NCBI GenBank assembly: GCA_963716255.1
Contig: OY970303.1
Span: 640,001 to 704,000, forward strand
Reading direction: 5' to 3'
From: an uncultured Gemmatimonadales bacterium
Lineage (GTDB): Bacteria; Gemmatimonadota; Gemmatimonadetes; Longimicrobiales; Longimicrobiaceae
DNA: 64,000 bases
Every line of letters begins with the position of its first letter. Position 1 is the first letter of the stretch. This document shows positions 1 to 16,635 of the stretch, in pieces. The position numbers were made by a program, and so were the translations under genes. The notes under the pieces are model-generated. The model made no database searches. It saw nothing but the letters and a program-made list of their open reading frames with translations, and had not been told where the DNA came from.

Positions 1-946
1 GCGGGGCGATTTGCTCCGGCATCTCTCGCTCGCACGCCACGTAGAGCGAGCCCGGGGTCTGCATCTCCAGCGCCTGGTGAGGCCGCTCTTCGTTGAACTC
101 GCGCCGGAAGGCATCGAATCGCTCCTGCTGCACCTGGACGTTGGCCGCCGGGGGCCGCAGCGTGCCCGCCTTGAGCGTGCGATGCATCCGCTCGTGCGAG
201 CCGTTCTGCTCCGGATGGGCCGGCTCGATCCGCTCGTGCTTGATCCCCATCTGCGTCCACCAGACACTCAGGCGCGAGAGCCCGGCGATGGCTTTCGTGC
301 AGAACGGGCCTCCATTGTCGCTGCGGATGGCCTGCGGAAGGCCCCGTTCGCGAAAGAGATGCTGGAAGCTCGCGCAGGCTCCCCTGTGCGCGGTCGAACT
401 CAGTCCCTCACAGGCCAGCAGGTAGCGGGTGTGAGTGTCCGTGACGGTCAGCGGGTAGCACAGCGTCCCGTCGCCCATGCGGAACTCGCCCTTGAAGTCG
501 GCGTTCCACAGCTGGTTGGCGGCCTCCACCGTGTGTGAGACTCGCCCCGGGTGAGACCACTCCCGCCGGTGCGGCCGAGACTCCACCAGCCCCTCCCGCT
601 TGTACAGGTCTCCCACCGTGCTCGCCGCCGGCAACTCCAACTCGGGTCGGCGCGGGCGTAACCAGACCAGGATTTTACGGGGGCCCCAATCCGGATGCGC
701 TTTGCGGGCCTTCAGCAGCGCGGTCCGGACCTCCTCCTTCATGCGGTGCGGACAGGACTTCGGTGCATGGCTGCCGGAAGCCAGCCCCGCAATTCCCTCC
801 TGCTCGTAGCGGTGCAGCCGAGTGTATCCGGCCTGGCGACTGATGCCGAACCGCTCGCACAGCTCCGTCATGCTGTAGAGCCCCTCCTGTGCGAGAACGA
901 CGAACTTCATCCGCTCATCCATCGGGTTGGTCTGTCTCCACGGCAT
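1..946 (-). CDS. IS481-family DDE transposase, truncated by the window edge
   Basis: Manual minus-strand translation from ATG 946 gives MPWRQTNPMDERMKFV..., and near the edge ...FDAFRREFNEERPHQALEM, typical of the IS481/integrase-core family. Missing from the ORF track because its stop lies outside the window. Confidence 0.85.
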   Translation of the reverse strand, partial: MPWRQTNPMDERMKFVVLAQEGLYSMTELCERFGISRQAGYTRLHRYEQEGIAGLASGSHAPKSCPHRMKEEVRTALLKARKAHPDWGPRKILVWLRPRRPELELPAASTVGDLYKREGLVESRPHRREWSHPGRVSHTVEAANQLWNADFKGEFRMGDGTLCYPLTVTDTHTRYLLACEGLSSTAHRGACASFQHLFRERGLPQAIRSDNGGPFCTKAIAGLSRLSVWWTQMGIKHERIEPAHPEQNGSHERMHRTLKAGTLRPPAANVQVQQERFDAFRREFNEERPHQALEMQTPGSLYVACEREMPEQIAP

Positions 947-3481: not shown

Positions 3482-3575
3482 TCCGGCCGGCGGCCGGCCC
3501 CGCCCCGTGTCCGGCGCGGGGCTCTCCGATCCCTCCCCTTCACGCGAGCCGCGACGACGGCCGGGCGAACTGCCG

Positions 3576-5348
3576 ATGAACTTCACGCGAGTCACCCTCC
3601 GGGACGCTGCGATCGACGGGATCGAGGGCGCGACCCTGCTCGTGCCCGACGGCTGGAGACTGGACGGCGGGTTCGCCTGGACGCCGCTGCTGTCCATGCA
3701 GGCCGGCCTGCCGCTGCACGTCTCCGACCCGCGCACCGGCGCGGCCGTGAGCATGCTCCCCGGCCACCAGTTCGTCTGGCCGATGCAGCCCATGCCCGGC
3801 ATGCAGCCCGGCGCCAACTGGCTGGGCTCGATCCTTCTCCCCCCGCCCGGCCACCCTGCGGAGTGCGTGCACCAGGTGTTCATGCCGGGGCCCCTTCAGC
3901 ACCTGCAGGGCGCGCGGCTCGTCGGCTCCGCGGACATGCCGGAGCTCGCCGCGGAAGCGGCCCGCGACGTCCCGCACATGACCGTGCACGCGACGCGCCT
4001 CCGCTATGCCTTCGGCTGGGGCGGGCGCCCCTGGGAGGAGGAAGTGTACCTGTCGGTATCCTTCGACCGGCCCAACGGCTACCTGGCGAGCTGGTGGTGC
4101 AACGCCCACTCGCTGCGCGCCCCGGCGGGCACGCTGGACGGGATGGCGCCCCTGCTGACGGCGGCCGTGCTGTCGCTGCGCGTGGGGCTGGACTGGTCCG
4201 CGCTGCTGGAGCACGCCCGCGGCCGGTTCCGCGAAGCCATGCGGAAGCAGCAGTCCGACCCCGACCCGCGCGGCCTGATCCTGCCCCCGGCCCAGCCCCT
4301 CGACCCGGCCTGGCGGCGTCAGCTGGCGGAGATCCGCGAAGCGCACCGGCCTGCGTGGGAGCGGTGGCAGGCCTCGCAGGACCGCCGGCACGCCGAGCTC
4401 GCCCGGGCCGTCGGCGGCCTGGAAGCGTACACCGACCCGTTCGAGCCGCGCCCGGTGCGGCTCCCCCGGTCCATGTACGGATACTGGGCCGGCTCCGACG
4501 GCAGGATCGCCGCCGCGCCGGGCGCGACATCCGGCATGCCCGCGGACGGCACGACGGAGTGGCGGCGGATGAGCGGCGAGCAGCCGGGACCCTGGAACCA
4601 GCCGGGCTACCCTGCCTGGCCCGGGACCGCGGGCACGATCCCCGCCATGAGGCCCCCCGCCCCGGGCGCCTCCGCGCCACCCCTGCACCGGGTGCCGGGC
4701 GAGCCGCGCTACCCGGACGGATACGGCTCCTCCGGCACGATCCCACCCCCGCCGGGGTCGGCCTCTCCGGCCGCGCCACCGGCACACCCGCTGCGGCCGG
4801 GACCGACCCCGGCGCCCCCGCAGGCCCCGCCGCCGCCTGCGCCGCACCGGGAGCAGCCCGCCGGCACGGGGGAAGACGGGCCCGGATCCACGGATGCCGA
4901 GATGGCCAAGCTGGAGACGTGGACGTCGGAGCTGGACGCGGAATTCGAGCGGATGCTCAAGGAGATCACGACGATGTACGAGCACGCCAATCGTATCGCC
5001 GCCAGGAGCGGCTCCACTCCCGGCGCCTCCTACGGCATCATCCTGAAGCGGCTGAACGAATGGCACGAGTACTTCCGCTCGCACCAGGGCCGCGCCTTCG
5101 CCAGCGAGGCGAGCCGCCGCTCGCTTTACGGGCAGTCGCTGACCCGGATCCTGGAGCAGGTGGAGAACCGGATCGAGGACATGGCGAAGCAGTGGAGGAA
5201 GTTCCAGGAAACGGAGGCCAGGGAAGAGGCGGACTTCCAGCAGGGGCTGCGCGACGCGACGACGGCATCGCTGGAGAAGAGGCAGGCGATGCAGCAGAAG
5301 TTCAGCGAGGACCTTCAGAAGGCGAGGAACAAGGGCTGGCGGAGGTGA
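3576..5348 (+). CDS. hypothetical protein: globular N-terminal domain, Pro-rich linker, helical/coiled-coil C-terminus
   Basis: Long ORF with coding-like codon bias; ATG 3576 chosen as start. Confidence 0.7.
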   Translation: MNFTRVTLRDAAIDGIEGATLLVPDGWRLDGGFAWTPLLSMQAGLPLHVSDPRTGAAVSMLPGHQFVWPMQPMPGMQPGANWLGSILLPPPGHPAECVHQVFMPGPLQHLQGARLVGSADMPELAAEAARDVPHMTVHATRLRYAFGWGGRPWEEEVYLSVSFDRPNGYLASWWCNAHSLRAPAGTLDGMAPLLTAAVLSLRVGLDWSALLEHARGRFREAMRKQQSDPDPRGLILPPAQPLDPAWRRQLAEIREAHRPAWERWQASQDRRHAELARAVGGLEAYTDPFEPRPVRLPRSMYGYWAGSDGRIAAAPGATSGMPADGTTEWRRMSGEQPGPWNQPGYPAWPGTAGTIPAMRPPAPGASAPPLHRVPGEPRYPDGYGSSGTIPPPPGSASPAAPPAHPLRPGPTPAPPQAPPPPAPHREQPAGTGEDGPGSTDAEMAKLETWTSELDAEFERMLKEITTMYEHANRIAARSGSTPGASYGIILKRLNEWHEYFRSHQGRAFASEASRRSLYGQSLTRILEQVENRIEDMAKQWRKFQETEAREEADFQQGLRDATTASLEKRQAMQQKFSEDLQKARNKGWRR

Positions 5349-5805: not shown

Positions 5806-6804
5806 TCAGTTGGTGAGGGCGTCGCGGTACCGGCTCCAGTCGTCCAGCACCGTCCCGGCGCCGCGCACCACCGTGGTGAGCGGGTCCTCGTCGATGCGCA
5901 CGGGAAGGCGCGTCTCCTCGGAGAACAGCGCCCCCAGACCGCGCAGCTGCACCCCGCCGCCGGTCATCACGATCCCCTCGTCCACGATGTCGGAGGAAAG
6001 CTCCGGGGGGGTGACCTCCAGCGCCTGCCGCACGCCGGTGGTGATGGCCTGCAGCGGCTCGCGCAGGCAGTCGCGGATCTCCTGCGAGTTGACCCACACG
6101 GTCTTCGGGAAGCCGGAGACCAGGTCGCGCCCCTTGACCTCCATCTCGTGCTCGGAGCCGTTGGGGTAGGCGGAGCCGATGCCGATCTTGACCGCTTCGG
6201 CGGTGGCCTCGCCCACCAGCAGGTTGTGGCTGCGGCGGATGAAGGCGACGATCAGCTCGTCCAGGTCCTGCCCCGCCACGCGGATGGACACGTTGGCGAC
6301 GATCCCGGAGAGCGCCACCACCCCGATCTCGGTGGTCCCCCCGCCGATGTTCACCACCATGCACCCCTTGGGCGTGGTGACGGGGAGCCCGGCGCCGATG
6401 GCGGCGGCGATGGGCTCGGAAAGCATGAACACCTGCCGCGCCCCGGCGGCGATCACCCCCTCGCGCACTGCGCGCCGCTCCATCTCGGTGATGCCGGAGG
6501 GAATGGTGATGAGTACGCGCGGCTTGACGCGCAGGCGCCGCCGCGGGAGAACGCGCTGCAGGAAGTGCCGCAGCATGAGGTCCACGCGGTCCACGTCCGC
6601 GATCACCCCGCCGCGCATGGGGCTCACGGCCAACACGCTGTCCGGGGTGCGCCCCAGCATCCGCTTTGCCTCCAGCCCCACGGCGAGCACCTTGCCGGTG
6701 GAGCGCTCCATCGCCACCACCGAGGGCTCGTTGATCACGATTCCCTCGCCGCGGACGTGGATCAGGGTGTTTGCGGTCCCGAGATCGATCGCGATGTCTG
6801 CCAT
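5806..6804 (-). CDS. mreB: rod shape-determining protein MreB-like actin homolog (orphan paralog)
   Basis: IAIDLGTANT, NEPSVVA, EPIAAAIGAGLP, NIGGGTTE, TPPELSSDI and MTGGG motifs; no mreC/mreD adjacent. Confidence 0.9.
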   Translation of the reverse strand: MADIAIDLGTANTLIHVRGEGIVINEPSVVAMERSTGKVLAVGLEAKRMLGRTPDSVLAVSPMRGGVIADVDRVDLMLRHFLQRVLPRRRLRVKPRVLITIPSGITEMERRAVREGVIAAGARQVFMLSEPIAAAIGAGLPVTTPKGCMVVNIGGGTTEIGVVALSGIVANVSIRVAGQDLDELIVAFIRRSHNLLVGEATAEAVKIGIGSAYPNGSEHEMEVKGRDLVSGFPKTVWVNSQEIRDCLREPLQAITTGVRQALEVTPPELSSDIVDEGIVMTGGGVQLRGLGALFSEETRLPVRIDEDPLTTVVRGAGTVLDDWSRYRDALTN

Positions 6805-6902
6805 TTCACTTCAGGTGTGTGCTGTGGACTGCGAGCGCCGCCCGGCGGGGCGGGCGCCTGGATGCGGGCGGAGGCGCGACGGCGCGCGGGCCGGAAACGG
6901 CG

Positions 6903-6955
6903 AAAAGCCGCCGGCGGCCCTCCCCGCGGCCAGGGGGAGGGAGCTCGCTGGCGGC
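6903..6955 (-). terminator. intrinsic terminator of the proximal riboswitch
   Basis: Minus strand GCCGCCAGCG..CCCTCCCC-loop-GGGGAGGG..CGCCGGCGGC-TTTT; the 5' arm is the aptamer 3' strand. Confidence 0.7.
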
Positions 6956-7035
6956 TCGGCTGGCGTAGCGGGTGGTTCCCGCCGTAGCCCCGTGGCTCTG
7001 CGCCACCGCCTTTCGACGGCTTCGCCCTTTTCAGC
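6947..7035 (-). ncRNA. c-di-GMP-I (GEMM-I) riboswitch aptamer, G20 type
   Basis: Minus strand GCTG-AAAAG-G-GCGAA-GCCGTC-GAAA-GGCGGT-GGCGC-A-GAGCCACGGGGCTAC...TACGCCAGCCGAGCCGC-CAGC: P1, GNRA-capped P2, A47 and P3 match the GEMM-I layout. Confidence 0.85.
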
Positions 7036-7100
7036 TTCGCGTATGGATCGTCCGACGGCACCGCGGCGAGCGCCGCGCGGGAGGGACCGGCCGGGCGGGG

Positions 7101-7144
7101 AAAAAGAATAGCCGCCAGCGCCGATCTCTCGGAATGCTGGCGGC
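7101..7144 (-). terminator. intrinsic terminator of the distal riboswitch
   Basis: Minus strand GCCGCCAGC-ATTCCGAGAGATCGGC-GCTGGCGGC-TATTCTTTTT; the 5' arm is the aptamer 3' strand. Confidence 0.8.
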
Positions 7145-7225
7145 CAGGCGAGCGTGGCGGGCGCGGCCCGCGGTAGCTCCGTAGCTCTGCGTCCCCGCCT
7201 TTCGGCGGGTTTGCTCTTTGCAGCA
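7135..7225 (-). ncRNA. GEMM-I riboswitch aptamer, A20 variant (c-AMP-GMP/3'3'-cGAMP-type)
   Basis: Minus strand TGCTG-CAAAG-A-GCAAA-CCCGCC-GAAA-GGCGGG-GACGC-A-GAGCTACGGAGCTAC...CCTGGCCGC-CAGCA; the base before GCAAA (position 7215) is A. Confidence 0.85.
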
Positions 7226-7283
7226 CCGCCGCCCCACCGGGGGCGTCCGGGATATGTGCCGTACTGTCACCGACTTGATCCGG

Positions 7284-7313
7284 AAGGTAGCCGCTCCGGA
7301 CGGGGTCCGTCAA
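7284..7313 (-). promoter_or_regulatory. putative sigma70 promoter for the riboswitch-mreB leader
   Basis: TTGACG (7313-7308)-N18-TACCTT (7289-7284). Confidence 0.45.
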
Positions 7314-7332
7314 CCCGGTGGGCGCGGCGCGC

Positions 7333-8598
7333 TCACGCCCGCGCGCCCACCGGGAGCGGTGCGGCGTCCGCGGCCTCCGAGCCGTGGGCCGCGCCCACCC
7401 GCCGCGAGGCCAGAAAGACCAGCGCCGCCATGACGGCGACGACGGTCGCCAGCGAGCGCGGGGTGCCGTCGTACAGCGACCCGGCCGCGAAGCCGGTGAG
7501 CGCGCTCCCCGCGGTCTGCAGGCTCCCCATCAGCGAGGAGGCCACCCCGGCCAGCCGGCCGTGCGGGGCCATGGCCCCGGCGGTGGCGTTGGGCTGTACC
7601 AGCCCGATCCCCAGCATGTAGGCCATCATGGGGAGGAGCACCCCCGCCGCGCCGCCGGTCCCCGTCCAGGCGGCGAGCAGCAGCGCCGCGCCGGCGGCGA
7701 GCACCAGCAGGGCGCCGCGGCGGAGCAGCGCGTCCGGGGCGTGGCGGGCGAGCAGGGCCCGGTTGAGCGCCGCCCCCGCCATCATGGAGCCGGCGGTGAG
7801 GGCGAACAGCAGGCCGAAGCGCTGCCGCGGCACGCCGAAGCCGTCGATGAAGACGAAGGGCGAGGCGCTGACGTAGGCGAACATCCCCGCGTAGGCGAAG
7901 CAGGTCGCCCACAGGTGGGCGCGCCCCGCCCGGTGCCGCAGCACGGCGCCGTAGGCGGCCAGCACCGCGCCGGGGCCGCCCTCCGCCGCGTGCCCGGCGG
8001 GGAGCGATTCCGGGAGGCCGCGCCAGCTCGCCAGCGAGAGCGCGGCCCCGGCCGCGCCCAGCACCAGGAAGATGGCGTGCCACCCCAGGTGCACCAGCAC
8101 GTACCCGCCCAGCGTGGGCGCCACCAGCGGCGCGGCCACCATCACCACGGTGACCTGCGACAGCACCGCCGCGCCCTCCCGCGCCCCGAAGCGGTCGCGG
8201 ATCACCGCCCGCGCCAGGATGGGGCCCACGCTGGCGCCCATCCCCTGGACGAGGCGGCAGGCGACCAGCACCGGGAGCGACCCGGCGGCCGCGCACGCGA
8301 GCCCCGCCGCCGTGAACAGCGCCAGCCCGCCCAGCAGCACGGGGCGGCGCCCCACGCGGTCGGAGAGCGGGCCGCAGACCAGCTGCCCCGCCGCGTACCC
8401 CGCCAGGAACAGGCTGAGGGTGAGCTGCACCGCCGCCACGTCCGCCCCGAAGACGCCCTGCAGCTGCGGCATCGCGGGGAGCGACATGTCGATGGCCAGG
8501 GCAGTCATCCCCGTGAGCGCCGCCAGCAGCAGCGCCAGCCCCCTCCCCCGCCGCGGTCGCGTCGCGGCGTCCCCCCCGTGCTCGGCTTCCTGCTTCAC
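7333..8598 (-). CDS. Bcr/CflA-family MFS multidrug efflux transporter
   Basis: AIDMSLPAMP, GPLSDRVGRRPVL and APTLGG motifs; about 12 hydrophobic segments. Start (GTG 8598) uncertain. Confidence 0.88.
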   Translation of the reverse strand: MKQEAEHGGDAATRPRRGRGLALLLAALTGMTALAIDMSLPAMPQLQGVFGADVAAVQLTLSLFLAGYAAGQLVCGPLSDRVGRRPVLLGGLALFTAAGLACAAAGSLPVLVACRLVQGMGASVGPILARAVIRDRFGAREGAAVLSQVTVVMVAAPLVAPTLGGYVLVHLGWHAIFLVLGAAGAALSLASWRGLPESLPAGHAAEGGPGAVLAAYGAVLRHRAGRAHLWATCFAYAGMFAYVSASPFVFIDGFGVPRQRFGLLFALTAGSMMAGAALNRALLARHAPDALLRRGALLVLAAGAALLLAAWTGTGGAAGVLLPMMAYMLGIGLVQPNATAGAMAPHGRLAGVASSLMGSLQTAGSALTGFAAGSLYDGTPRSLATVVAVMAALVFLASRRVGAAHGSEAADAAPLPVGARA

Positions 8599-16477: not shown

Positions 16478-16512
16478 AAAAGAAAACGGGCCCATCGCGG
16501 TGATGGGCCCGT
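16478..16512 (-). terminator. intrinsic terminator after tRNA-Ala
   Basis: Minus strand ACGGGCCCATC-ACCGC-GATGGGCCCGT-TTTCTTT. Confidence 0.8.
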
Positions 16513-16517
16513 CGGAG

Positions 16518-16590
16518 TGGAGCGTATCGGGATCGAACCGATGACCTCCGCCTTGCAAAGGCGGCGCTCTCCCAGCTGAGCTAACGCCCC
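16518..16590 (-). tRNA. tRNA-Ala(TGC)
   Basis: GGGGCGTTAGCTCAGCTGGGAGAGCGCCGCCTTTGCAAGGCGGAGGTCATCGGTTCGATCCCGATACGCTCCA folds as a cloverleaf; anticodon TGC; G3:U70 pair; 3' CCA not encoded. Confidence 0.97.
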
Positions 16591-16605
16591 TTGTTTGGGG
16601 CGCCG

Positions 16606-16635
16606 AATATAACGCTTCCGGCCGTTTTGCGTCAA
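16606..16635 (-). promoter_or_regulatory. sigma70 promoter of tRNA-Ala
   Basis: TTGACG-N18-TATATT just upstream of the tRNA. Confidence 0.7.

Follow-up and report, generated by a model that had tools for sequence, protein, structure and literature searches.

What role could two riboswitches in series play in front of a gene for cell shape, and do the two respond to a single ligand or to two? This question is raised by a leader preceding an mreB paralog in a soil-dwelling Longimicrobiaceae (Gemmatimonadota) bacterium whose genome consists of a single contig of 8.42 Mb. The window, meaning the whole 64-kb stretch that was analyzed (G000:C1:640001-704000), gave three matches above the gathering score in an Rfam 15 scan of its full length: a tRNA and two c-di-GMP-I aptamers. 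An MFS transporter gene on the minus strand ends at 7333 and is followed by an intergenic leader of approximately 530 nt before mreB. The sequence-only reading had described tandem aptamer-terminator units upstream of mreB, and this observation was confirmed with the same coordinates and sequences. The parts of the locus, in the direction of transcription, are as follows.

7308..7313, minus strand: -35-like hexamer TTGACG of the predicted leader promoter, a role assigned from consensus and conservation.
7284..7289, minus strand: putative -10-like hexamer TACCTT (TAnnnT), 18 nt past the -35-like hexamer.
7230..7245, minus strand: small leader hairpin CGCCCC-CGGU-GGGGCG directly 5' of aptamer 1, from the fold of 7280..7226.
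7136..7225, minus strand: aptamer 1 (distal), c-di-GMP-I family, A20 type; RF01051, 53.5 bits, E 1.2e-7, model 1-87.
7111..7144, minus strand: stem-loop of terminator 1 (T1), 5' arm GCCGCCAGC; the whole of T1 with its U-tract is 7144..7101.
7101..7110, minus strand: U-tract of T1, UAUUCUUUUU, read from the sequence.
7037..7100, minus strand: spacer between the two riboswitch units, free of promoter-like matches.
6947..7036, minus strand: aptamer 2 (proximal), c-di-GMP-I family, G at the G20 site; RF01051, 57.3 bits, E 1.4e-8, model 1-87.
6907..6955, minus strand: stem-loop of terminator 2 (T2), 5' arm GCCGCCAGCG, overlapping the final 9 nt of aptamer 2; the whole of T2 is 6955..6903.
6903..6906, minus strand: short and weak U-tract of T2, UUUU followed by CGCCGUUU.
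5806..6804, minus strand: orphan MreB paralog, the putatively regulated gene; 332 aa, monocistronic, Pfam MreB_Mbl PF06723.

Both aptamers extend over the full RF01051 model (positions 1-87) and exceed its gathering score of 35 bits. The GGC variant family RF03167 was rejected for both, with scores of 43.1 (aptamer 1) and 46.3 (aptamer 2) lying below its cut-off of 59. P1 of aptamer 1 is formed by GCUG (7224..7221) paired with CAGC (7139..7136), and the same 9-nt strand, GCCGCCAGC, closes both aptamers at 7144..7136 (unit 1) and 6955..6947 (unit 2). This strand comprises the 3' strand at the foot of the second aptamer helix (P3), the unpaired C with which the ligand pairs, and CAGC, which in each aptamer forms P1 with a GCUG at the 5' end.

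The downstream gene product matches PF06723 (MreB/Mbl) along its full length (434 bits, residues 2-324) and is one of three MreB paralogs in the source genome, where mreC and a RodA-family gene (rodA) follow another copy at C1:6075390. None of mreC, rodA, or mreCD was found in the downstream neighborhood of the riboswitch-preceded copy. The gene is monocistronic, and its next neighbor is a convergent plus-strand gene (3507..5348) encoding a 613-aa protein without a Pfam family.

The GCCGCCAGC strand is also the key to the proposed switching. In both units, as had been noticed from the sequence and as the Rfam matches and folds bear out, the 3' strand of the aptamer doubles as the 5' arm of a downstream hairpin that is followed by U residues. 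In unit 1, the partner of GCCGCCAGC is GCUGGCGGC (7119..7111), and the two enclose a small inner stem; the 3' arm reads GCTGGCGGC at 7119..7111 and continues into TATTCTTTTT at 7110..7101. The partner in unit 2 is CGCCGGCGGC (6916..6907), with an inner stem of 8 bp enclosed and TTTT following at 6906..6903. Since the 3' strand of the aptamer is the 5' arm of the terminator hairpin, the bound aptamer and the terminator should exclude each other, and the mutual exclusivity of the terminator and ligand-bound P1 proposed by the sequence-only reading was upheld by the predicted folds and aptamer alignments. T1 has the features of an intrinsic terminator, namely a GC-rich hairpin with the U-tract directly after it, and when folded alone (13 pairs) it reached -26.0 kcal/mol (z -5.05), with 0/200 shuffles as good. 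T2 forms a strong hairpin of -35.7 kcal/mol, yet it carries only UUUU before CGCCGUUU, and its gain over shuffled sequences was modest (z -2.26; 5/200 as good). A simple terminator scan flagged neither hairpin because it limits loops to 8 nt (range, 3-8 nt).

Folding of the whole leader was consistent with this arrangement. Both terminators form in the unconstrained minimum free energy (MFE) fold (-181.9 kcal/mol); forcing aptamer 1 gave -167.2 kcal/mol, a cost of 14.7 relative to the free fold, forcing aptamer 2 gave -176.9 kcal/mol (cost, 5.0), and forcing both gave -161.7 kcal/mol (cost, 20.2). A nascent RNA ending before the 3' arm of the terminator adopts an aptamer-like fold, with the GCUG/CAGC pairing of P1 formed in unit 2. 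The identity of the 9-nt strands in the two units, with GCUGGCGGC perfectly complementary to both, would also permit cross-talk in which the freed 3' arm of T1 pairs with the 3' strand of aptamer 2 and antiterminates T2, so that the second decision hangs on the first. The constrained folds did not favor this scheme: with aptamer 1 forced, the MFE fold keeps T2 in preference to the long-range pairing, and the local T2 hairpin offers approximately 19 pairs against 9. We regard such cross-talk as very improbable.

Recurrence of the same design elsewhere counts in favor of the two-switch reading. We defined an aptamer subclass by a 5' YGCUG (GCUG), GCAGAGC, and a 3' GCCGCCAGC. A hairpin using the final 9 nt and followed by at least 4 U in 9 nt was present in 34 of its 44 distinct aptamers, compared with 53/880 shuffled downstream sequences, in a sample that is biased in that most members were gathered by similarity to the mreB leader or as RF01051 matches. 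The 44 include one locus (L029) from an unpublished genome (G010), without which the count is 33/43. The loop and inner stems between the terminator arms vary widely among the subclass loci, which fits the expectation for an expression platform. Each aptamer of the mreB leader has its own expression platform according to the folds, and the consensus promoter scans placed no promoter-like site between the units. Overall, we consider it probable that two ON riboswitches acting on transcription follow one another at the locus, each provided with a terminator.

The tandem leader is present in five genomes of the genus, i.e., the source genome, G001 (95% identity to the source leader), G006 (86%), G008 (86%), and G002 (80% over part of the leader). 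Hardly any change affects the two aptamers and the outer stems of both terminators in the alignment, whereas the spacer and the region past T2 diverge. T1 and T2 are both kept in the four other tandem genomes, in one of them with changed inner stems. The T1 stem-loop is retained in 7/7 mreB orthologs, with inner stems that vary in L049 and L050, and its U-tract reads UAUACUUUUUUU, UAUUCGUUUA, UAUUCAUUUA, UUUUUGCG, CUUUUUCAUU, or CCUUUUUGUUUUUG in orthologs. L049 and L050 belong to the same genus and have a single aptamer and terminator of the distal, A20 type upstream of MreB orthologs that are 81% and 79% identical, whereas MreB orthologs at 66-72% identity have no aptamer. From this distribution, the proximal unit looks like a later addition.

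If one unit suffices in those relatives, the proximal one may contribute little, being leaky or serving another role (RNA stability or a pause), with the distal unit alone effective and control close to that of the ancestral single A20 riboswitch. Such a situation would fit the short U-tract of T2, which is degenerate in G002 (UCUCGCCGUUU), the modest advantage of the T2 fold over shuffles, and the low cost (5 kcal/mol) of forcing aptamer 2. Nevertheless, aptamer 2 outscores aptamer 1 and has stayed nearly invariant in five genomes while its flanks diverged, and weak U-tracts are frequent among the platforms of this aptamer subclass. The T2 stem-loop is kept in 5/5 orthologs, including G002, where the inner stem is altered on both sides and an A.C mismatch of the outer stem has become A-U; the retention of the stem through these two-sided changes speaks against a distal-only switch. 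We therefore consider control by the distal unit alone unlikely.

Serial control further presupposes that transcription enters upstream of both units. The predicted leader promoter is the sole match to a relaxed pattern (TTGNNN-N16-19-TANNNT) within 6805..7345. Its TTGACG is invariant in 5/5 aligned orthologs and is shared by L049 and L050, and the ortholog versions of the -10-like hexamer read TACCTT, TACTTT, TAACGT, TATCCT, or TATCGT. The source organism uses canonical promoters and hairpin-plus-U terminators, as exemplified by the tRNA at 16518..16590 in the same window, which has a TTGACG-18-TATATT promoter and a hairpin-plus-U terminator. The sequence-only reading had considered that an internal promoter could bypass the distal switch; neither the consensus scan nor the relaxed search returned a candidate between the units or past T2. 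Other parts of the leader showed little structure. The spacer (7100..7037; z +1.52) and the 98 nt downstream of T2 (z +0.97) were no better structured than shuffles, and approximately 30 nt of the spacer is deleted in G002. The region of the small leader hairpin (7280..7226) also folded no better than shuffles (z -0.18), and orthologs have a GC hairpin of other sequence at that position.

Public RNA runs contain only small shares (0.05-0.12) of the 64-kb stretch. Leader RNA of close relatives was found in soil metatranscriptome contigs covering 6873..7264 at 95-99% identity in four runs from three studies; these contigs, aligned at an identity of at least 90%, carry no information on strand or level, nor on where transcripts start and end. 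T1 is spanned by contigs in all four runs, and a single contig spans T1 and T2 together. RNA libraries thus contain the leader of close relatives, including molecules that read through. No contig in the four soil runs ends at 7101 or 6903, and two contigs from two studies stop at 7258. None of the leader contigs reaches past 7264 on the upstream side or enters the mreB body, which is represented by conserved fragments of 30-45 nt, and the lack of contig cover over the mreB body carries no evidential weight. Leader-only RNA contigs were counted toward the termination model as a weak hint.

Whether the two switches read the same ligand depends on the bases that contact it. The base on the 5' side of the conserved GC pair (model position 11) is A in aptamer 1 and G in aptamer 2 in 5/5 genomes, and the A of the distal aptamer is also present in both single-aptamer orthologs. 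We take this position to be G20 of the Vc2 reference, and presumably the A after the GC pair and the C 3' of P3 are A47 and C92 in Vc2 numbering. Both aptamers match the consensus at the position after the GC pair and at the unpaired C of GCC. At the contact bases G20/A47/C92, aptamer 2 therefore reads G, A, and C, and aptamer 1 reads A, A, and C, so that it lacks the G20 feature; the GEMM-Ib signature, A at the G20-equivalent position, is found in aptamer 1 and not in aptamer 2. The G20-site base contacts the ligand, with G reported for c-di-GMP and A for c-AMP-GMP (PMC9481103, PMC6140456). A20 aptamers can nonetheless bind c-di-GMP, and the Vc2 G20A mutant and many natural A20 aptamers are described as bispecific, binding both ligands (PMC6140456). 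The A of aptamer 1 may thus represent a cGAMP-type or a bispecific signature.

On this difference rests the possibility of a true AND gate, in which 3',3'-cGAMP (or some other dinucleotide containing A) is sensed by the distal A20 aptamer and c-di-GMP by the proximal G20 aptamer, with mreB transcribed only when both are abundant. The proximal unit would then be a recently duplicated A20-type unit whose specificity was switched by an A-to-G change, a history consistent with the presence of the A20 unit alone in L049 and L050. Aptamer 2 has GCUG, GCAGAGC, and GCCGCCAGC in common with the A20 subclass. Within the terminator-type subclass, A occupies the contact position in 38 distinct sequences (one of them from G010), and G occurs in only four, all of them mreB proximal aptamers. 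The invariance of A in the subclass and the confinement of G to the mreB proximal aptamer point to selection on the contact base. Among 12 other tandem loci of the family, picked by eye from the matches listed and not exhaustive (144 further matches were unlisted), the distal-to-proximal order was A-A in seven, A-G in three, G-G in two, and G-A in none.

An AND gate would also require a source of cGAMP. In Hypr GGDEF enzymes that make this dinucleotide, Ser348 replaces the canonical Asp nine residues past Asn339 (PMC6456294), a position that corresponds to the D of NDxxGHxxGD. All 19 GGDEF domains of the source genome that cover the site have Asp (GHxxG-D) and none has Ser/Thr. A six-frame motif scan of the genome likewise found 16 Asp sites and no Ser/Thr site, and a DNA pattern for Ser/Thr GGDEF gave no hit in the source genome, its Asp twin recovering 14/16 sites. 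The Ser/Thr pattern does occur in the family, in 4 of 41 genomes belonging to three other genera, compared with 0/8 genomes of the source genus. The Ser-type match in one of these (G034) reads GHLAGS...GGDEF; no ortholog of the family's Ser-type GGDEF was found in the source genome, the best counterpart being 32% identical and having Asp. The only SMODS cyclase (CD-NTase) of the source genome lies within a SAVED-SMODS-ThiF-JAB operon, which is a CBASS defense system. A search with the DncV-like Pfam model PF21654 gave no match in the source genome, but the control genomes were equally silent and the search is uninformative. Within these searches, which cover known signatures of cGAMP synthases, a recognized source of cGAMP as a housekeeping signal was not found in the source genome. 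Furthermore, A20 aptamers are widespread in family genomes without a Ser-type GGDEF.

The strict conservation of A in the subclass, with the mreB tandem as the lone A-to-G exception, is the best case for two ligands, and the missing synthase is the best case against. The sequence-only reading had left both branches open, an AND if the ligands differ and a sharpened response if they are the same. The first gains from the A/G difference at the contact base, consistent in all five genomes, and loses from the lack of a recognizable signaling cGAMP synthase. Because of this lack, and because the U-tract of T2 is weak, the sharpened single-ligand response appears more likely than the AND gate, which we consider possible but rather doubtful. 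Our preferred reading, with a rough probability of 0.5, is that of two serial ON switches that are both most likely driven by c-di-GMP, the distal A20 unit being weaker or bispecific. An argument against this single-ligand reading is that, at equilibrium, a tight proximal switch would add little to a weaker distal one.

With both switches driven by c-di-GMP, transcription would start at the conserved TTGACG/TACCTT promoter, and in the absence of ligand T1 (7144..7101) would halt most transcripts. Those that pass it would encounter T2 (6955..6903). Ligand binding would lock P1, P3, and the ligand-pairing C, withholding GCCGCCAGC from the terminator and allowing read-through, such that a full-length mreB mRNA would require both aptamers to be occupied. 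The distal A20 unit could act as a weaker or bispecific reader of c-di-GMP and the proximal G20 unit as a tight one. Through this double filter, c-di-GMP might then induce an accessory actin-like cytoskeleton protein more steeply and with less leakage.

Tandem c-di-GMP-I switches are already known, and one less usual feature here is the A/G difference between two otherwise homologous units. With 347 doublets and 12 triplets catalogued, they are the commonest tandem class, a triplet from Bacillus thuringiensis being among the cited cases, and tandem switches of the same class have been read as devices for pseudo-cooperative, more digital control (PMC9481103, Sherlock and Breaker 2022). Like the catalogued c-di-GMP-I (GEMM-I, RF01051) tandems, the mreB leader carries a pair of complete aptamers from a single family, each equipped with a separate expression platform, and a steeper response is expected (PMC9481103). 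It differs from them in the contact base (A, then G), in its target (an MreB paralog instead of a surface protein), and in its host, which belongs to the Longimicrobiaceae (Gemmatimonadota). No c-AMP-GMP/c-di-GMP-I gate appears in Table 2 of PMC9481103. The natural AND gates described there (glycine/c-di-GMP-I and ppGpp/T-box) likewise place two ON elements in series with both inputs needed, but they pair unrelated classes with clearly different ligands, whereas the mreB aptamers are homologous and might have different ligands (PMC9481103).

The GEMM-Ib (3',3'-cGAMP) transcriptional ON switches of Geobacter offer a mechanistic parallel. As reported for pilM of G. metallireducens, formation of the terminator precludes the bound aptamer and hides the ligand-pairing C (PMC9262584), and A at the G20 site is common to these switches and aptamer 1 (PMC9262584, PMC6456294). 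For the Geobacter tandem upstream of omcAHG/GSU2885, RNA-seq is reported to show that transcription terminates at the riboswitch in the absence of ligand (PMC6456294). However, that tandem combines A20 with A20 rather than A20 with G20, and Geobacter has the Hypr GGDEF GacA, which makes cGAMP, whereas the source genome lacks such a signature (PMC6456294). The Vc2 aptamer of Vibrio cholerae and its G20A mutant belong to the same fold family, and their G-to-A change is the very difference between the two mreB aptamers; since Vc2 G20A is bispecific, A alone is no proof of cGAMP selectivity (PMC6140456). Among the papers listed by a literature search, none described mreB under riboswitch control or a tandem gate for cGAMP and c-di-GMP.

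The cell-shape gene mreB is an unusual riboswitch target, and Gemmatimonadota is an unusual phylum for one. If the switches work as predicted, cyclic-dinucleotide signaling would directly reach the machinery that determines cell shape in a little-studied soil phylum, through a spare MreB whose induction would accompany a regulon comprising surface proteins and cell-wall peptidases of the M23 type. The pair also constitutes a clean natural test of the G20/A20 base, as it comprises homologous aptamers in one leader with identical platform strands, and the close relatives with the A20 unit alone add to its value. Should aptamer 1 be selective for cGAMP, a synthase not yet recognized in Longimicrobiaceae, and hence in Gemmatimonadota, would be suggested, and cGAMP/c-di-GMP would join the short list of natural riboswitch logic gates, with the accessory MreB cytoskeleton made only when both second messengers coincide.

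Induction of mreB by c-di-GMP would sit alongside a wider regulon of surface proteins and M23 peptidases. The source genome has 15 RF01051 aptamers, six with A and nine with G at the G20 site. Besides the distal mreB aptamer, A-type aptamers precede two Big_2 lipoproteins (one with a polysaccharide-lyase domain), a GGDEF (GGEEF) protein, a GAF-PAS histidine kinase, and an unknown protein. The G-type aptamers sit immediately before start codons. No downstream ORF was called for the aptamer at C1:417974, and a Pfam scan of the ORFs past seven of them identified two M23 peptidases, a subtilase, a cadherin-like protein, a PEP-CTERM protein, a DUF4382 protein, and an 89-aa ORF without a Pfam match.

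Two G20-type aptamers (G at the ligand-contact site) precede genes for secreted M23 peptidases, which, taken with the MreB paralog behind the tandem, suggests cyclic-dinucleotide control of cell-wall remodelling. The features outside the window, in coordinates of contig C1 of the same genome (G000) or of the extracted locus L056, are as follows.

1854125-1854219 and 2819752-2819847: two G20-type aptamers, each ending 13 nt 5' of the start codon of a secreted M23 peptidase gene
4102464-4102538, minus strand: A20-type c-di-GMP-I aptamer, about 155 nt 5' of the ORF of a GGDEF protein
L056:1808-2809, minus strand: that downstream ORF, encoding a 333-aa GGDEF protein of the Asp type (GGEEF)

The A20-type site could form a feed-forward loop, with expression of a diguanylate cyclase switched on by a cyclic dinucleotide.

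Serine at the GGDEF base-selectivity site (NDxxGHLAGS...GGDEF), the signature of Hypr, cGAMP-making GGDEFs, is encoded in 4 of the 41 Longimicrobiaceae genomes (loci L071-L074, from G020:C93, G019:C52, G064:C9 and G034:C1:3429309-3429425), and the scan across these 41 genomes found none in the window's genus. The window's own genome (G000) encodes a cyclase within a CBASS-like operon of type II. The stretch that holds this operon has a third-position GC content below that of its neighbours, and the operon is probably a defence island gained by acquisition.

G000:C1:4822400-4827500 (L055:2907-7984): SAVED-domain protein, SMODS cyclase, ThiF/E1-like protein and JAB protein

Elsewhere in the family, the proximal aptamers of three tandems (L059:318-413, L064:371-466 and L065:1593-1689) score as RF03167, the c-di-GMP-I-GGC variant family, and lie immediately 5' of the start codon; these tandems are mixed, transcriptional and translational.

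The mreB leader itself carries two further elements.

7250-7275, minus strand: conserved block GUGACAGUACGGCACAUAUCC between aptamer 1 and the predicted promoter
6836-6860, minus strand: GC-rich inverted repeat between the mreB start and T2, the predicted terminator of the proximal aptamer

RNA contigs from two studies share a stop at 7258, which could be a 5' end, processed or true, that differs from the one predicted from the -10 element. The repeat, which lacks a U-tract, is retained in orthologs with a changed sequence (GCGCCCGCC...GGCGGCGC versus GCGCGGCC...GGCCGCG), and the region holding it, folded whole, was not better than shuffles.

Three other features of the window were recorded.

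2-946, minus strand: transposase/integrase ORF with HTH and rve domains, extending past the window start
3507-5348, plus strand: 613-aa ORF, convergent with the mreB paralog
16485-16635, minus strand: tRNA (16518..16590) with flanking signals

The 613-aa ORF matches no Pfam family, and its GC3 signal for coding is strong (0.92). The promoter of the tRNA (TTGACG-18-TATATT) is close to consensus and its intrinsic terminator is canonical, so that the locus is a useful reference for the appearance of such signals in this organism.
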